Shown one piece after another: positions 47,395 through 62,245 of a DNA stretch of 64,000 nt; within the stretch, counting starts at the first letter, position 1, and every line of letters starts with the position of its first letter. The notes beneath the pieces were generated by a model, which was given only the letters and a program-made list of their open reading frames with translations, did not search any database and was not told where the DNA came from. The DNA is taken from the IMG/VR virus record IMGVR_UViG_3300021400_000046, positions 32,001 to 96,000 of that record, one strand, 5' to 3'. This DNA is from a virus. Lineage: Duplodnaviria > Caudoviricetes. Both the position numbers and the translations under genes were made by a program.

Positions 47395-47670
47395 TTACGA
47401 TTTCCCGCAATTTTTGCGCTCATAGGCCATATTTTGAAATTCTATGGTGTTTTCTCTGTCGATCCAGCGATTTTCGTATGTATCATAGAGCCTAAATGGT
47501 GTGCTTACCTTCAGCTTCATTGGCAGACTATTATTTGACATTACTTTACCGAGCCTGGTGATCTCTTGAATAATGACAATCTTAGGAGCTGTTAATACTT
47601 GTCGTTCTATTGTGTCTCCGTGTGAAAACTCAAAGACACACTGTACCGGCTGCAAATCATTTACAAACAT
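47395..47670 (-). CDS. Hypothetical protein
   Basis: GAGG RBS; directly downstream of a consensus promoter. Confidence 0.65.
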   Translation of the reverse strand: MFVNDLQPVQCVFEFSHGDTIERQVLTAPKIVIIQEITRLGKVMSNNSLPMKLKVSTPFRLYDTYENRWIDRENTIEFQNMAYERKNCGKS

Positions 47671-47707: not shown

Positions 47708-47736
47708 ATTATACACGCATTGTCTGAATATGTCAA
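47708..47736 (-). promoter_or_regulatory. Perfect consensus sigma70 promoter
   Basis: TTGACA-17 nt-TATAAT reading leftward into the nucleotide-metabolism genes. Confidence 0.85.
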
Positions 47737-47756: not shown

Positions 47757-48973
47757 TTAATTACGTAATTCAACAAGATATTTGATTGTGCTTTGTTCCT
47801 CTTTGTAAACGATGATTTCATCATTTCGCAACATTGATCCTTCGTGTGCGTGTAAGCAGTTTGCGCCCGGACAGGCACTTTGCAGTTTATCATAAGTGAA
47901 ACTATTGTACTTACTATCAAAGGAATATACATCGAATGGTTTACCGTAGGCCACATTCATAAGTGCCATAAAACCAGAGTTTGAATTTCCTTTTGCCCAA
48001 TAGCTCCCTGTTAAGCTCGTATATCCAAGTGATTTTCTTGCTTTGGGTGCATAGTAGATACCATATCCGAACATTTCCCGGTGATTACTGCATTCGTTGG
48101 GCGCAGCACTAAGCCGCTTTGAATAATTGACCACCAATTCTCATTCCTGGAACCGTGAAATAGTAAGCGAATATCTTTGATATTGTTTTCTTTCACAAAA
48201 TCATCGAACCGCCTTTGTGTTTTTATGTTCTTGACTACCCATGCTTTGTAGAACTGGCCTGCACAAGAACCAAGCGCAACCTTAATTCTTGCAATATCAT
48301 CGTTTGTACATTCTTCAAATTCAAGCCCAAGCTGTTCAAGAATTGTTTTGTCATTTACAGGATCAGTTGTAGTAGTTTTATCAATCGTTTGTTTTTCAAC
48401 GATTTGACCCTTCATAACATCAAGCAAATCCTGTTCACGCTGGATTATTTTAGCAAAATCATCGGGGGACTGAGATAAATAATATCTTACAGTAGACATT
48501 TTTCGCGGAATGGTTGTGAACAGCTTTAGAAGCTGCTCGTTGAAAATTGAAACACTTGTTATTTGCAGAAGTCCGGTGATAATATCTTGCGCCTCATTAA
48601 CCATAGCATGAGTAACCTTATTAGATGAAATAGTGTAGTTTTCACTAATTGCTTTTCTTGCCATGCTTTGTAAACGTTCAACAATCTCTGCAATAGCTTT
48701 GTTCTCAATTTCTTTGTATTCTGGCTGGCCTTTTGGTTTCTCAACGGAGATCAAATCTTTTACAAGGTCTGTCTGATCTGTGTAGCCCTTCTTGATTTTT
48801 TCGTTGTACTTCTTTTCCCATTCATACTTGGAATAGGAGCGGGATTGTGAACCGCTACCTATGCGGCCATATTCAGCGATCCACCTATCACCATTTGGAG
48901 TCATTTTATAATACTTGTTATGGTTGTCGCCAGAAGTAACCATAACTAAATATCTTGGAGTGTAATCAATCAT
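47757..48973 (-). pseudogene. WGR-domain PARP-family ADP-ribosyltransferase interrupted by a 1-nt frameshift at 48074-48076
   Basis: WGR domain (NKYY...YGRIG), regulatory helices (LFTTIP) and LFHGS in one frame; MFGYGIYYA and NDEIIVY in the -1 frame; adding one A gives a 405-aa ORF. Confidence 0.85.
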
Positions 48974-49796
48974 TGCTTTTACCATTATAATATGCAAATT
49001 TACATCCGTGGACGGTATTGATTTTCCCAGAACAACATTTTGATATACTTCCAGAATCAAATCCTGTCTCACTTGCCGCCTCTTTTATTGAATTGTAAAT
49101 TGTGTTTGTGTCTAAGCAAATCACACTTTTTGAGCCAATATGTTTTCTTTTTCTTGTCTCACTAATTTTTGCTTTTACCGAATCATCTAAGTGTTTCCCG
49201 TACATTGGACTGTTTTTACCTAATAATTTATGGTTATTATAGTTTGGATTTAACGCTCCCGTTCTTGATGATGCCAGTTTACTCAAAATAGATCGTGTCT
49301 CTTTACTATGATGTTTGCCATAAAACCCGTTGTTCTCTCCTACATTCTTACCGCTTCGTTCTTTTGACCATTTATCTTTTTGCTCCTGAGAATGTGTTTT
49401 ACCATAAAAATTATTCTTTATCCCTTTGTGAGAAACAGACATTTTATCTCTTGTTTCTTTTGAGAATTTTACGCCAGCAAATCCATCACCACCAGCAGTA
49501 ATGTTATAACCACAGGATTGTTCTTTGCAAACTTGCGTATTATACTTTTTAATCAATTCTACTTCTTTTTCTTTTGCTTCGCTTTCTGATAGATTTGTAA
49601 AAAGAATAATATGCTCAAAGTTATCCCACCCATATTTTTTAATAGCATTATAAAAATACGGGTTTTTCTTTTTGGTATATTGGTTGCCGTTTTTGCCCCA
49701 TCTAATTTCTGGTTTAAGATGTGTGATGCCAATGTACATCTTACCGTTTATCTTGTTTTTATGAAGATAAACTGTCCATGTATTTACAGGTAGCAT
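48966..49796 (-). CDS. GIY-YIG homing endonuclease with NUMOD3 repeats
   Basis: VYLH.NKINGKMYIGIT, FYNAIKKYGW and repeated N.FYGKHHS motifs. Confidence 0.88.
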   Translation of the reverse strand: MLPVNTWTVYLHKNKINGKMYIGITHLKPEIRWGKNGNQYTKKKNPYFYNAIKKYGWDNFEHIILFTNLSESEAKEKEVELIKKYNTQVCKEQSCGYNITAGGDGFAGVKFSKETRDKMSVSHKGIKNNFYGKTHSQEQKDKWSKERSGKNVGENNGFYGKHHSKETRSILSKLASSRTGALNPNYNNHKLLGKNSPMYGKHLDDSVKAKISETRKRKHIGSKSVICLDTNTIYNSIKEAASETGFDSGSISKCCSGKINTVHGCKFAYYNGKSND

Positions 49797-50221
49797 ACGA
49801 GAATATCAATATCAGTATCTTCAAATACATCTTTTATCATTTCACGTACACTATCCCAATCTAATTTGTCAAGCCCCGAAGCTATTTTTGGCATGGCAAG
49901 TTTGTTTACGTGGAGTGTTTCGCATTGCTCACGAAGATCGAGTAGTGTGTCATAGAGATCATCATAACGCGGCTTATGATAGCATAGAGGCTTTGTGACG
50001 AGGTTAAATACGTTCCCAACAAGCAATGCTCTGCCAACATTTGCGTACCTATCTCCCGTTGGAATCGGATAGTCTCTATGCAGCCTGAACTTCATATCGA
50101 AAATATTGTTAAACTGCTTTGCAATGCCAGCTCCAAGAGCATAATCGCCGCTGATGCAATGCACTAAGTAATATCCTTGTGGAGCAAGGAATAAATCTTC
50201 TTGAACTTCTGTAAAAGTCAT
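49784..50221 (-). CDS. TARG1/OARD1-like macrodomain ADP-ribosylhydrolase
   Basis: LVHCISGDYALGAGIA, NLVTK and MPKIASGLDKLDW motifs. Confidence 0.88.
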   Translation of the reverse strand: MTFTEVQEDLFLAPQGYYLVHCISGDYALGAGIAKQFNNIFDMKFRLHRDYPIPTGDRYANVGRALLVGNVFNLVTKPLCYHKPRYDDLYDTLLDLREQCETLHVNKLAMPKIASGLDKLDWDSVREMIKDVFEDTDIDILVCYL

Positions 50222-58869: not shown

Positions 58870-59658
58870 CTAATCATCTTCTATAATTTGGAAATGTAAA
58901 TTACCTGTATGTTTCCTTTTACCATGACATACCGCAGATATTTTACTCATACTACATCCAGTATCTATCGACGCTTCTTTAACTGTTTCATACACTTTGC
59001 CAGTATCTAAACAAATAACACGTCTTGCATTTGGATTTTGAGCGCCAGAATACCAGATTTTGTTTTTCTTCATCTTCTCTATCGCTTCTTTTGATTTTGA
59101 AGCATGATTCAATTTTTCAATATGCTCTTTTGACAGTTTCTTACCATACATAGGATTATTTTTACCAGAACAATCATAATGGTTGTCTTTCATTTTATCT
59201 TTGGTTTCCTTTGAGAAAACTCTACCTTTTAATGCTGCGCTTATTTTTATCCCGAATCCGTCTGGTTTTGGTATACCTTTTCTGCTTTCGCTCATTTTTC
59301 TTTTCGCTTCTTCTGTGTGATGTTTACCAAACCACGGGCTATCGCTACCAGAATAACCTTCGCCACCAGGAGTTACATTGTAGCCATAATCAGTATTTCT
59401 GGTTTTATATTGAGAAATCATTTCTATTTCTCTTTCTTTTGCAGTTTTTTCATCAAGATCAGAAAACAGTATTTCATGTTCAAAGTTACTCCACCCATAT
59501 TTTTTAATTGCGTTATTAAAATGTGGAGAACTCTTATATCCTTTACCGTTTCTAAACCTTTGATTTAATTCTTGGCAAGTAATCCCTATATACTTTTTGC
59601 CGTTTATCTTATTAGTATGGCAATAAACAACATATTTTTTATCTTCATTATGCTTCAT
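58870..59658 (-). CDS. GIY-YIG homing endonuclease with NUMOD3 repeats
   Basis: VYCHTNKINGKKYIGIT, NAIKKYGW and GKHHTEE motifs. Confidence 0.88.
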   Translation of the reverse strand: MKHNEDKKYVVYCHTNKINGKKYIGITCQELNQRFRNGKGYKSSPHFNNAIKKYGWSNFEHEILFSDLDEKTAKEREIEMISQYKTRNTDYGYNVTPGGEGYSGSDSPWFGKHHTEEAKRKMSESRKGIPKPDGFGIKISAALKGRVFSKETKDKMKDNHYDCSGKNNPMYGKKLSKEHIEKLNHASKSKEAIEKMKKNKIWYSGAQNPNARRVICLDTGKVYETVKEASIDTGCSMSKISAVCHGKRKHTGNLHFQIIEDD

Positions 59659-59761: not shown

Positions 59762-60751
59762 TCAATGTGCCTGTTCATCTGCAAAATGAAGAAGCATAAT
59801 ATCATTCATCATATCTTCACCGAGCAAAGCAACATCTCGTTTCTTTGCCTTTTCAGATTGTTTCCATTCCATATATGGAGCCATGTGATAATAGATAAGG
59901 TTTATTACTCTAACCATATCTTTATAAGCTCCGATCTGGTTTATGTAAAACATTGCATTATAAGCGCCTACATTTTGATGATTGTAGTAATGGTAATCTC
60001 CATCAAATTCACGCTTTGAATTTAGCCGCGTTTTCGTGTACAGTTTGCCATTATCATGTAATAATGCTGCCAGTTGCAAAGCATAATCATCTGGCCTTTG
60101 TTTCTTCACATACTCATAGGCTGCAATGCTATGCCCACCAAGAGTAAGAGTATGATGCTTGTTATCCTGGCTAAAACCATTTGCTTTTTTCAAATACGAT
60201 TGGAGATCAAATTCTTTTTGTGGTGTATGAGTAATGTTTTTATTCTCGTCAAGATATGAGAACACAAATTGAATATAGTCAAAGCCCTCGTTGAAATCAG
60301 GCGGTGCAAAGCTCATTTGCATACGTTTGATAACGTCTACAGGAACCTTACGCTCTCTTTGATTGTTATTGTGCAAACAAGCGTCAAAAGTTGTTGCAAA
60401 ACAAATACAGTATTTCTCGCAATTAATATTCTTTAATTCTGAAATGAACTGTATACGGGTTTTCTTTTTTAAGCAAGTTGCATCATAAACAACATCTTTA
60501 CCAGAAGAAAGATCACGTTTAATTCTTGCATGAAGTTCATTAAACAGTTTGCCATTATCGCCTTGGATTGCCTCGTCTCCATACAATTCTTTTCGTAGAG
60601 CATCGGACGAATGAATAACAGGTCGAGTTGTTCTTCCGTCTGGATTGGTAATCTCAATGTTCTTTGCGTATGTACTCTTTCCACTACCAGGCAAACCAAT
60701 AGTCATAATCAAAATTGGGTTGTCATGGTATTTATTGATAATATCACTCAT
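59762..60751 (-). CDS. Polynucleotide kinase (AAA_33) fused to an HD phosphoesterase
   Basis: GLPGSGKST, SSDALR, YDAT motifs; HH...LLHDNGK...H HD motifs. Confidence 0.85.
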   Translation of the reverse strand: MSDIINKYHDNPILIMTIGLPGSGKSTYAKNIEITNPDGRTTRPVIHSSDALRKELYGDEAIQGDNGKLFNELHARIKRDLSSGKDVVYDATCLKKKTRIQFISELKNINCEKYCICFATTFDACLHNNNQRERKVPVDVIKRMQMSFAPPDFNEGFDYIQFVFSYLDENKNITHTPQKEFDLQSYLKKANGFSQDNKHHTLTLGGHSIAAYEYVKKQRPDDYALQLAALLHDNGKLYTKTRLNSKREFDGDYHYYNHQNVGAYNAMFYINQIGAYKDMVRVINLIYYHMAPYMEWKQSEKAKKRDVALLGEDMMNDIMLLHFADEQAH

Positions 60752-61059
60752 TCTTCATCTTTCTTTGCACTTATGGGATTAATTTCTTCTTCTGTAACTT
60801 CACCGTTATTCTTTTCCTGTGGTGCTTGTTCTTGCTTTTCATCTTTGATAACAAGTTTACCGTTTTGTAGATTTCTACCGCAATACTTCTTCGCAGATTC
60901 AAGACGTTTCATAAGTGGAAGCGAACTGTCTGTAAGCAAATCATAAATAACTTTACTAACAGACTGTGCGCCAACAGACAACCCACGGTAAAATTGCTTT
61001 TTCATTGCGTCACGCAACACTTCATCAAATTTGTTTTCTTGTTCTTTAGTAAGTGCCAT
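60748..61059 (-). CDS. Hypothetical protein
   Basis: AGGAGAG RBS; coupled to the pnk gene. Confidence 0.65.
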   Translation of the reverse strand: MALTKEQENKFDEVLRDAMKKQFYRGLSVGAQSVSKVIYDLLTDSSLPLMKRLESAKKYCGRNLQNGKLVIKDEKQEQAPQEKNNGEVTEEEINPISAKKDEE

Positions 61060-61069
61060 TTTTCTCTCC

Positions 61070-62245
61070 TTAACCGTTGTGCTTCAAAAGATATTCTCTT
61101 GAAACATTTTTGAAACTAAAGTCATTTGTCGGATCACGAAGTACAACACCTTCGCGCATTACATTAGGATTGACAACAGACTTCGCCGTTGCATATTCCT
61201 TAAATTCCTCCATATCATTCGGCACATGATAATCAACATCGAGAATTGGAACAAATTTCATACCAAAACCAACAATAATCTTCTCTGCATCTACCGATGA
61301 TAAACGCCCTTTATCAGAACGAATGAAGTTAAACACATATAGATCATCTTCTTTTAGTTTTAGAGGATTACCTTGAACGCTACCTACGGACTCCCCCTGA
61401 ATACACACATATTTCAGCTCTGGATTATCAAGTAAATATTGCTTCAACTTTGCCTCAATGTTGTATTTAAGTGCCATTTCCCAATAAATGTTCTTGTCGT
61501 GATAACACTTTTGGTCAATGGATTTCTGCCGGACGTTCCTGGAAAGAACATAGAACTCAAACTTCTTTCTCCCTTTGCGTTCCATGATATATGTAGATGA
61601 AGTTCCATCCAGCTTTTCAGTAACAATCAGAGGTCTTTCATAACCAAGTACCCACGGAATATTTTCGCAGCGTTCCTCGTCTGTCTTATGTACAAATGGA
61701 AAATGAGTAGGAAATGCAAGAGGCTTATCTTTCTTCTTACCAAAGAAAAAGAACATGATCTTTCTGCCGATTTTTGTTCTCATAATCTTGCGCACAATCG
61801 GCTTTCTGAAAATCTTTTGGTGACGAGCTGCCATTGCCTTATACTTATCATTTGGGTTTGCTGTATTTGACTTTCGCACATTATCTTCTGCAACAGCATA
61901 AGTCACTTTCAGCAGATCAGTAACATCGCTACCAACTTCTAACCCGTCCAATTCAGGGAACATGGAAACTGGTAGGAGCAGCCCTTGTGAGTAGACCTTG
62001 CACATCTTCTGTGTTTTGATCTTGTAATGTTTTGCTTGAAGGAATGCAAATCTTTCATCAGTCTCAGGCACTTTGCTATCAACCTCGAAATACACAGCCT
62101 TTTCGCCAACCTTCAACTCACCAAGTCGAATAACACACCACCAACCGTTAGTTCGTGCGTGTTCAACTCTGTCATAGTTTGGGATAGGCCGGACTTCATC
62201 AACGGTTACGATATAAGCCAACGCTCTTTTATCGTTTATAATCAT
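61070..62245 (-). CDS. ATP-dependent RNA ligase (DRB0094/Rnl2-like)
   Basis: N-terminal OB-like domain (YFEVDS, SQGL); KTDEER, TEKLDGTS, QGE, EGVV and SFK motifs. Confidence 0.88.
   Translation of the reverse strand: MIINDKRALAYIVTVDEVRPIPNYDRVEHARTNGWWCVIRLGELKVGEKAVYFEVDSKVPETDERFAFLQAKHYKIKTQKMCKVYSQGLLLPVSMFPELDGLEVGSDVTDLLKVTYAVAEDNVRKSNTANPNDKYKAMAARHQKIFRKPIVRKIMRTKIGRKIMFFFFGKKKDKPLAFPTHFPFVHKTDEERCENIPWVLGYERPLIVTEKLDGTSSTYIMERKGRKKFEFYVLSRNVRQKSIDQKCYHDKNIYWEMALKYNIEAKLKQYLLDNPELKYVCIQGESVGSVQGNPLKLKEDDLYVFNFIRSDKGRLSSVDAEKIIVGFGMKFVPILDVDYHVPNDMEEFKEYATAKSVVNPNVMREGVVLRDPTNDFSFKNVSREYLLKHNG

Follow-up and report, generated by a model that had tools for sequence, protein, structure and literature searches.

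The stretch of viral DNA analysed here, referred to as the window, comprises 64,000 nucleotides, bases 32001-96000 of the 149,631-bp IMG/VR virus record IMGVR_UViG_3300021400_000046, a record that has direct terminal repeats and was judged complete. On the minus strand of the window, between the gene for a DnaE-type DNA polymerase III alpha subunit and a small open reading frame (ORF) termed orf91, lie a gene for a macrodomain of the TARG1/OARD1 type, a gene for a free-standing GIY-YIG homing endonuclease, and a gene for a poly(ADP-ribose) polymerase (PARP) that is divided over two frames. Judged by sequence comparison across relatives, the macrodomain and the PARP constitute a conserved two-gene ADP-ribosylation module, predicted eraser first and predicted writer second, of large phages that infect Clostridia of the gut and rumen. 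Two features are specific to the window: the endonuclease gene inserted between eraser and writer, and the fact that the writer is broken.

Linkage of the two genes was followed in 80 IMG/VR contigs that encode PARPs 53-76% identical to the window PARP. An intact PARP of ~404 amino acids (aa) is encoded immediately after a macrodomain gene in 77 of the 80, with 76 detected by tblastn and one divergent case, on contig L065 (related contigs are cited by such numbers), by profile. In the reverse search, the best 80 macrodomain relatives all have a PARP directly downstream (80/80), and the gap between the two genes is -10 to +13 nt in loci without an inserted endonuclease gene. The pair is also found in bacterial genome collections, on 14 Clostridia-type contigs from isolates or metagenome-assembled genomes (MAGs) that include Ruminococcus sp. 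YE282, Lacrimispora amygdalina, and Lachnospiraceae bacterium TWA4, and it is kept together in well over a hundred related phages. Within paired loci, identity falls to ~29% for the macrodomain and to ~53% for the PARP, and the pairwise distances of the two proteins are correlated (Mantel r 0.67, a value that 0 of 2000 permutations reach), with the macrodomain diverging ~1.6 times faster. The earlier, sequence-only reading of the window had staked its proposal on linkage of the two genes in related phages, and the 77/80, 80/80, and 14 Clostridia-type contigs bear that linkage out. No match to the locus was returned by megablast or blastn from the GenBank phage collection, which thus holds no close cultured or deposited relative.

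The window macrodomain is a close homologue of TARG1/OARD1. Pfam Macro scores it at 22.5 bits, barely above the cut-off, and a profile built from 35 macrodomain homologues aligns with human TARG1/OARD1 (4j5r) over its full length at E 2e-36, as against only ~1e-7 (E 7e-8) for DarG macrodomains. Consistent with the profile, an AlphaFold (AF2) model of the macrodomain with a predicted local distance difference test (pLDDT) score of 96 has TARG1 as its top Foldseek match (template-modelling (TM) score 0.87-0.92, root-mean-square deviation 1.2-1.9 A, 36-37% identity), and DarG macrodomains are next, with TM ~0.82. The sequence-only reading had pointed out the TARG1 catalytic lysine and aspartate, and both are present: K77 (NLVTK) aligns with K84 of TARG1 (LITK), and D118 (GLD) with D125 of TARG1 (also GLD). 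The lysine is invariant across the 35 homologues; the aspartate is kept in the window and in most homologues, and is G, N, or E in about one quarter of the non-redundant set. The phage protein is also of similar size to human TARG1/OARD1 (C6orf130; PDB 4j5q, 4j5r, 4j5s), with 145 aa against ~146-152 aa, and differs from it in being encoded by a phage, in an operon with its presumed writer.

The partner of the macrodomain appears, by domain content and motifs, to be a compact clade-1 PARP with a WGR domain, a helical domain, and an ADP-ribosyltransferase (ART) domain that bears the H-Y-E triad. A profile of 41 intact relatives matches the WGR-helical-catalytic chains of PARP2 and PARP1 at E ~1e-19, with the catalytic His, Tyr, and Glu aligned. 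In a scan of 43 sequences, namely the 41 intact relatives and the two PARP pieces of the window, Pfam PARP matched 43/43, Pfam WGR 42/43, and Pfam PARP_reg 0/43, the same PARP_reg result as has been reported for most bacterial PARPs, in which a helical region is likewise present though the Pfam model is silent (PMC8120803). The helical domain in PARP1 CAT structures is matched by profile positions 118-240, and an AF2 model of the closest intact relative (pLDDT 76) has a beta-rich WGR domain, helices at residues 91-187, and an ART domain; Foldseek places this model nearest to PARP2 and PARP1 in complex with DNA breaks. The regulatory part of the enzyme proposed from sequence alone is putative: profile and model point to it, and Pfam does not. 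The WGR domain aligns with that of PARP2, and its motif reads YGRVG where PARP2 has WGRVG.

The predicted order of domains, WGR-helical-ART, is that of human PARP2 and PARP3 and of the bacterial PARPs of Herpetosiphon aurantiacus and Clostridioides difficile CD160, and the H-Y-E triad aligns with the PARP1/2 family, as do the GxMFGxGIY and xEIIVY motifs. Compared with these enzymes, the phage protein has only ~404 aa, lacks an N-terminal extension, zinc fingers, and BRCT, has a reduced Tyr-Glu interval in its ART domain, and carries YGR as its motif. Its partner is a TARG1-type eraser, whereas bacterial PARPs have been reported together with PARG in one organism (PMC5966428). Profiles, Foldseek matches, and catalytic residues thus support the PARP2/3-like architecture and TARG1-type macrodomain that had been read from the sequence.

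Positions of these genes, and of the features that adjoin them, are collected in the table. The overlaps in series that had been described for dnaE, the macrodomain, GIY-YIG, and PARP genes are all confirmed by the minus-strand coordinates: the dnaE stop and macrodomain start share a 4-nt ATGA, the macrodomain and GIY-YIG genes overlap by 13 nt, and the PARP ATG, at 48973, is part of an 8-nt overlap with the GIY-YIG gene. The PARP gene ends at 47757, and the perfect sigma-70 consensus, identified purely as a sequence match, starts 21 nt past its stop codon. This candidate promoter, ahead of orf91, probably starts the next transcription unit, which would plausibly make PARP the last gene of its own unit. 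The product of orf91 is weakly conserved (32-37% identity) downstream of PARP in several relatives.

Table. Features of the eraser-writer locus and its borders (window coordinates).
Feature	Position	Strand	Evidence
DnaE-type DNA polymerase III alpha, 1062 aa	50218-53406	-	Pfam DNA_pol3_alpha, PHP, finger, HHH_6
TARG1/OARD1-type macrodomain, 145 aa, intact; predicted ADP-ribose eraser	49784-50221	-	Pfam, profile, model
Free-standing GIY-YIG/NUMOD homing endonuclease, 276 aa	48966-49796	-	Pfam GIY-YIG, NUMOD3 x3, I-HmuI_NUMOD
PARP N-terminal frame: WGR, helical domain, first part of ART with His (LLFHGS)	48074-48973	-	Pfam WGR; Pfam PARP positions 28-81
PARP C-terminal frame, 105 aa + stop: rest of ART with Tyr (GYGIYYA) and Glu (NDEIIVY)	47757-48074	-	Pfam PARP positions 79-198
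Frameshift site in PARP, one A deleted	48074-48076	-	Codon-by-codon comparison with relatives
Perfect sigma-70 consensus (TTGACA-17 nt-TATAAT) ahead of orf91	47708-47736	-	Consensus scan, 12/12 match
orf91, 91-aa protein of unknown function	47395-47670	-	Lies behind the consensus promoter

The pair lies within a larger arrangement. The window has a GC content of ~36-38%, and its plus strand carries structural genes, two giant ORFs among them. The minus strand carries a replication and nucleotide-metabolism module, in the order NT5C, MT-A70 methylase, RNA ligase, PNK-like kinase, GIY-YIG endonuclease, Sak annealing protein, DnaB, DnaG, PD-(D/E)XK nuclease, DnaE, macrodomain, second GIY-YIG endonuclease, PARP, orf91, ThyX, nucleotide-metabolism enzymes, NrdD/NrdG, a dUTPase-domain protein, and a tyrosine integrase. 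The genes for the RNA ligase (PHA02142 OB-fold plus RNA_ligase) and the PNK-like AAA_33 kinase, at 59762-62245 (-), are a probable RNA-repair pair, and the macrodomain could in principle serve their pathway too.

As sequenced, the window PARP is split, as the sequence-only reading had implied by speaking of a repaired PARP. The N-terminal frame ends in ...NAVITGK and the C-terminal frame begins MFGYGIYYA, with base 48074 common to the last Lys codon of the one and the Met codon of the other. Where the window has GGG AAA TG, every relative has GGN AAR ATG: one A has been lost between the codons for the catalytic His and Tyr, and beyond it the N-terminal frame continues through 20 out-of-register codons before a stop at 48011. 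The N-terminal piece is 53-76% identical to the first 300 aa of the intact ~404-aa PARPs of the 80 phage contigs, and the C-terminal piece shares 52-90% identity with the corresponding ends of relatives, in which a single frame joins it to the N-terminal part. The one-base deletion divides the triad over two frames, and therefore no full-length enzyme can be made from the gene as sequenced; the only product predicted to be possible is a 320-aa protein with the WGR and helical domains and no catalytic activity, alongside an intact eraser. All the parts that had been listed for the writer, WGR, PARP, LFHGS, GIYYA, and NDEIIVY, are thus present, but not as a triad in one protein, and the reversible cycle ascribed to this phage can be credited to its relatives, but not demonstrably to the phage itself. 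Programmed frameshifting was rejected as an explanation, because GGGAAAT is not in the X XXY YYZ register of a slippery site and every relative has one continuous frame.

Whether the deletion was carried by the phage or arose in sequencing or assembly bears on how the locus is read. The two PARP halves keep 164 of the 167 columns that are conserved at >=90%, and the three other changes are conservative; this makes the lesion either an artefact or of very recent origin. An artefact, in which case the real phage would have an intact PARP and the endonuclease insert would be the sole oddity, is a serious possibility to which we give somewhat less than even credence. That near-complete conservation favours it, as do the nature of the lesion, a single base lost within a run of A, and the absence of the frameshift from every PARP relative compared. 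Against it, the eight long ORFs of the window, which span 28.6 kb and contain 406 homopolymer runs of at least 4 bases, show no frame break, and so the assembly is not indel-prone. Furthermore, null alleles of PARP recur in other lineages, and identical alleles are found in two or three separate metagenomes.

Three independent null alleles besides that of the window were found among ~116 distinct PARP sequences, with the macrodomain intact in all. Contig L078 (6811-6813) has TGG changed to TGA at the Trp before the catalytic His, while its ten cluster mates are intact. Contigs L173 (1115-1117), L174, and L175, from three metagenomes, share a TAG at a conserved Trp of the WGR domain, and L188 (3243-3245) and L189, from two metagenomes, have CGA changed to TGA in the helical domain, with L187 intact. 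Nonsense mutation is a simpler reading of these in-frame stops than stop-codon recoding, because each is one transition away from TGG or CGA, and sister contigs that are nearly identical keep the sense codon. The existence of these independent nulls raises the odds that the deletion in the window is real. Counting that of the window, there are four writer-null and zero eraser-null alleles; an asymmetry of "eraser kept, writer lost" was ruled out as significant, since the writer gene is 2.8 times longer than the macrodomain gene and only ~1.4 eraser-null alleles would be expected. Contig L101 was considered as an additional broken PARP and rejected, since the insertion in its helical domain is small and in frame and the gene is free of stops. 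In L082 (6795-7543), the 5' two-thirds of the PARP gene is followed immediately by the 3' third in reverse orientation, through either a genuine inversion or chimeric assembly.

The genes around the pair are less constant than the pair itself. A dnaE gene is found within ~5.5 kb upstream in 20 of 36 non-redundant relatives, at a median distance of 1.1 kb, and abuts the pair in only a few lineages; the gene directly upstream may encode LigA, an ATP-dependent ligase, DnaE, NT5C, SPFH, or others. Coupling to dnaE, and with it a tie to the replisome, is accordingly not a conserved property of the module, contrary to the sequence-only reading. An NAD-dependent ligase is encoded directly upstream of the macrodomain in L041 (3577-5559), L063, L067, and L071 (3340-5355), being a LigA with BRCT in L041 and L071, and an ATP-dependent ligase in L053 (4241-5521) and L072 (4204-5532). 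This recurrence of two unrelated ligase classes at one position is, in our view, the strongest hint from gene context that the pair acts at nicks or breaks. In the genome studied here, the LigA gene is ~35 kb from the pair.

Nor does the endonuclease belong to the unit, as had been assumed from its overlaps. A GIY-YIG gene occupies the macrodomain-PARP junction in only 6 of the 80 related loci, and of L080 and L075, with PARPs 97% identical, L080 alone has the insert; the gene is an optional mobile insert. Another GIY-YIG/NUMOD homing endonuclease gene of the window, at 58870-59658 (-), lies between the genes for the Sak annealing protein and the PNK-like kinase, and its product is 36% identical to that of 48966-49796. 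In L008 (1457-5530) and L019 (1479-5513), dnaE is in two same-frame pieces with a GIY-YIG endonuclease ORF between them, which could be a split caused by a homing endonuclease or an intron-borne endonuclease.

PARP genes in other arrangements were also encountered. L062 (4086-7224) and L114 (4998-7701) each have two nearby PARP genes on the same strand and no adjacent TARG1-like macrodomain; the two copies of L062 are ~31% identical over their N-terminal part and have an uncharacterised 185-aa ORF between them. Uncharacterised ORFs also stand ahead of the PARP genes of L059 (195 aa) and L064 (262 aa). PARP contigs of this family also include L089, assigned to a Candidatus Absconditabacterales MAG, and L107 and L108, assigned to Nanoarchaeia and Pacearchaeota MAGs; these contigs, binned with the candidate phyla radiation and DPANN groups, are probably mis-binned phage contigs.

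What the pair does can be approached by analogy. The roles suggested in the sequence-only reading, namely marking of DNA ends, drain of NAD+, and neutralisation of DarT, are conjectural. The comparisons above establish its domain identities, catalytic residues, linkage, and place among genes of DNA metabolism (DnaB, DnaG, the PD-(D/E)XK nuclease, DnaE, ThyX, NrdD/G, and the Sak annealing protein), and the biochemistry of PARP1/2/3, of the Herpetosiphon PARP, and of TARG1 suggests how its activation by DNA, its targets, and their reversal might look. The reading we favour, and regard as evenly poised between right and wrong, is that the module would perform reversible ADP-ribosylation in phage DNA metabolism, triggered by breaks or nicks. 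The WGR domain would sense nicks or ends of phage or host DNA that arise from replication, recombination, or packaging, and sensing would free the helical domain and switch on the ART domain. The latter may then ADP-ribosylate itself, other proteins on Glu/Asp, or the phosphates of DNA ends. The TARG1-like eraser, presumably translated first from the common message, would strip mono-ADP-ribose or a whole chain from the ester or phosphate links and so reset the system. Human TARG1 cleaves Glu/Asp and DNA-end phosphate ADP-ribose links, and can release whole chains. To our knowledge an HPF1 homologue is not to be expected in bacteria, and none was looked for here. Bacterial WGR-PARPs are active in vitro, and the Herpetosiphon enzyme requires DNA (PMC8120803, PMC5966428). 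Searches of this phage for NAMPT/NAPRTase, microbial PARG, an ARH-type glycohydrolase, and Nudix found none; in the absence of PARG, ARH, Nudix, and NAMPT, the macrodomain is therefore the sole recognisable ADP-ribose-processing enzyme of the phage.

Several observations weigh against break-triggered, reversible modification by the pair. A literature search returned no biochemical or genetic evidence for any phage PARP, and the WGR motif of the phage enzyme is Y-G-R and not W-G-R. PARP-null alleles persist in nature, so that phages can do without the writer, at least over short spans of time, and the equivalent of TARG1 D125 is lost in a divergent subclade of the macrodomains. No adjacent TARG1-like macrodomain lies beside the distant PARPs of Cellulophaga phage phi4:1, XacN1, the huge-phage record LR756500, L059, L062, L064, L081, and Paenibacillus, and none was found beside the more distant PARPs of Paenibacillus, Microscilla, and Bacteroidales. 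Profile-profile comparison of the neighbours of PARP in L059, L062, L064, L081, LR756500, and Cellulophaga phi4:1 gave no hidden macrodomain (<2% probability), and L065 was the only match (97% probability) among the candidates that had appeared to lack one. The pairing is thus confined to one clade, and possession of this eraser is not an obligate requirement for the PARP. Furthermore, adjacency to replisome and ligase genes is variable, with unrelated neighbours in many lineages, and co-inheritance of adjacent genes is no proof of a common substrate.

A bolder proposal, which we consider unlikely, makes the pair a switch for ADP-ribosylation of DNA ends and nicks, in which PARP would cap phosphorylated termini or nicks, or modify proteins bound there. 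Capping of the replicating or packaged linear genome would shield it from host exonucleases or time its ligation, and the eraser would uncap the ends for the ligase that is encoded directly upstream in several lineages. If true, such a switch would be a prokaryotic-virus counterpart, and possibly the evolutionary source, of the eukaryotic PARP/TARG1/ligase axis of break repair, and recurrent writer-null alleles would mark hosts in which the cap is costly.

Two other accounts of the pair were weighed. One treats it as a toxin-antitoxin-like or exclusion module, with a PARP that is toxic through its host targets or by draining NAD+ and an upstream macrodomain that acts as "antitoxin"; in a temperate phage, such a module would serve to exclude superinfecting phages, abort infection, or shut off the host, in the manner of DarT/DarG and sirtuin/Macro. 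Eraser-first order and tight coupling (gaps of -10 to +13 nt without the insert) suit this account, as do the ~1.6-fold faster evolution of the eraser, the integrase encoded by the phage, and the description of sirtuin-Macro and ART toxin-antitoxin systems in phages (PMC9503650). The four independent writer-null alleles with an intact eraser, and no eraser-null, would also be in keeping with it, but the asymmetry is not significant, ~1.4 eraser-null alleles being expected and none seen. The pair is moreover situated in a module for replication and nucleotide metabolism, not in a lysogeny or moron region; its WGR and autoinhibitory helical domains favour regulation by DNA over a constitutive toxin, and related PARPs occur without this macrodomain. 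We judge a role of this kind improbable. The writer does not fit a Type II toxin-antitoxin system of the DarTG type, as it is not of the DarT family (DUF4433) and is assigned to the PARP family by Pfam and profile.

The other account, to which we give the least credence, is that two independent functions travel together, the macrodomain serving counter-defence and the PARP separately modifying proteins of the host for take-over. The macrodomain would then strip ADP-ribose that the host imposes on DNA (DarT-type), RNA, or protein, or would degrade metabolites derived from ADP-ribose. Lone homologous macrodomains (35-46% identity) are indeed present in Lactobacillus phages LP65 and LpeD, Fusobacterium phage Fnu1, and Bacillus phage G; DarG macrodomains come next in structural similarity, and TARG1 can reverse the DarT modification (PMC9411070, PMC9967889). 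The eraser is intact where the writer is broken, and the window also encodes the RNA ligase and PNK-like kinase. What this account does not readily explain is adjacency in 77/80 and 80/80 loci across a range that reaches ~53% identity for PARP and ~29% for the macrodomain, which is hard to reconcile with a lack of functional coupling, and the macrodomain is far nearer to TARG1 (E 2e-36) than to DarG (E 7e-8).

The phage pair resembles the DarT/DarG and sirtuin (SirTM)/Macro systems in that genes for an ADP-ribosyl writer and a macrodomain eraser adjoin each other, and the DarG macrodomain, its second-best structural match, is itself TARG1-like. It differs from both in its writer, a PARP-family H-Y-E enzyme with a WGR domain, of the type that senses DNA breaks, in place of DarT or a sirtuin, in the eraser-first order of its genes, and in an eraser that stands alone as a protein of 145 aa. 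Phage PARPs have been recognised before (PMC4245714, PMC7824862, PMC9503650), as have viral TARG1-like macrodomains (PMC4245714). Genes of Cellulophaga phage phi4:1 (gp031), Xanthomonas phage XacN1 (ORF414), and Aeromonas phage Aeh1 have been annotated or discussed as phage PARPs (PMC4245714, PMC7824862); they encode homologous WGR-PARPs, 22-30% identical over the N-terminal 300 aa, and, unlike the window pair, have no adjacent TARG1-like macrodomain. In phi4:1 the PARP gene adjoins that of a CCA-adding enzyme, with a DNA ligase gene two genes downstream. A large survey of viruses argued that phage macrodomains target mainly soluble ADP-ribose derivatives (PMC9503650). The reviews and surveys that we searched treat phage PARPs and viral TARG1-like macrodomains separately, and no conserved phage operon of PARP and TARG1-type eraser was described in them.

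The importance of the module is tempered by its parts, which belong to known families, by its function, which is wholly inferred, and by the broken writer of this particular copy. Nevertheless, eukaryotic DNA repair relies centrally on signalling by PARPs and on its reversal by TARG1, and almost nothing is known of the part that these play in prokaryotes and viruses. The 36-37% identity between the phage macrodomain and human TARG1 bears on the origin of the eukaryotic enzymes. A compact and strongly conserved PARP and TARG1-type operon of abundant gut and rumen phages, simple in having no PARG, no accessory domains, and presumably no HPF1, would be a minimal and genetically tractable model of break-triggered, reversible ADP-ribosylation.

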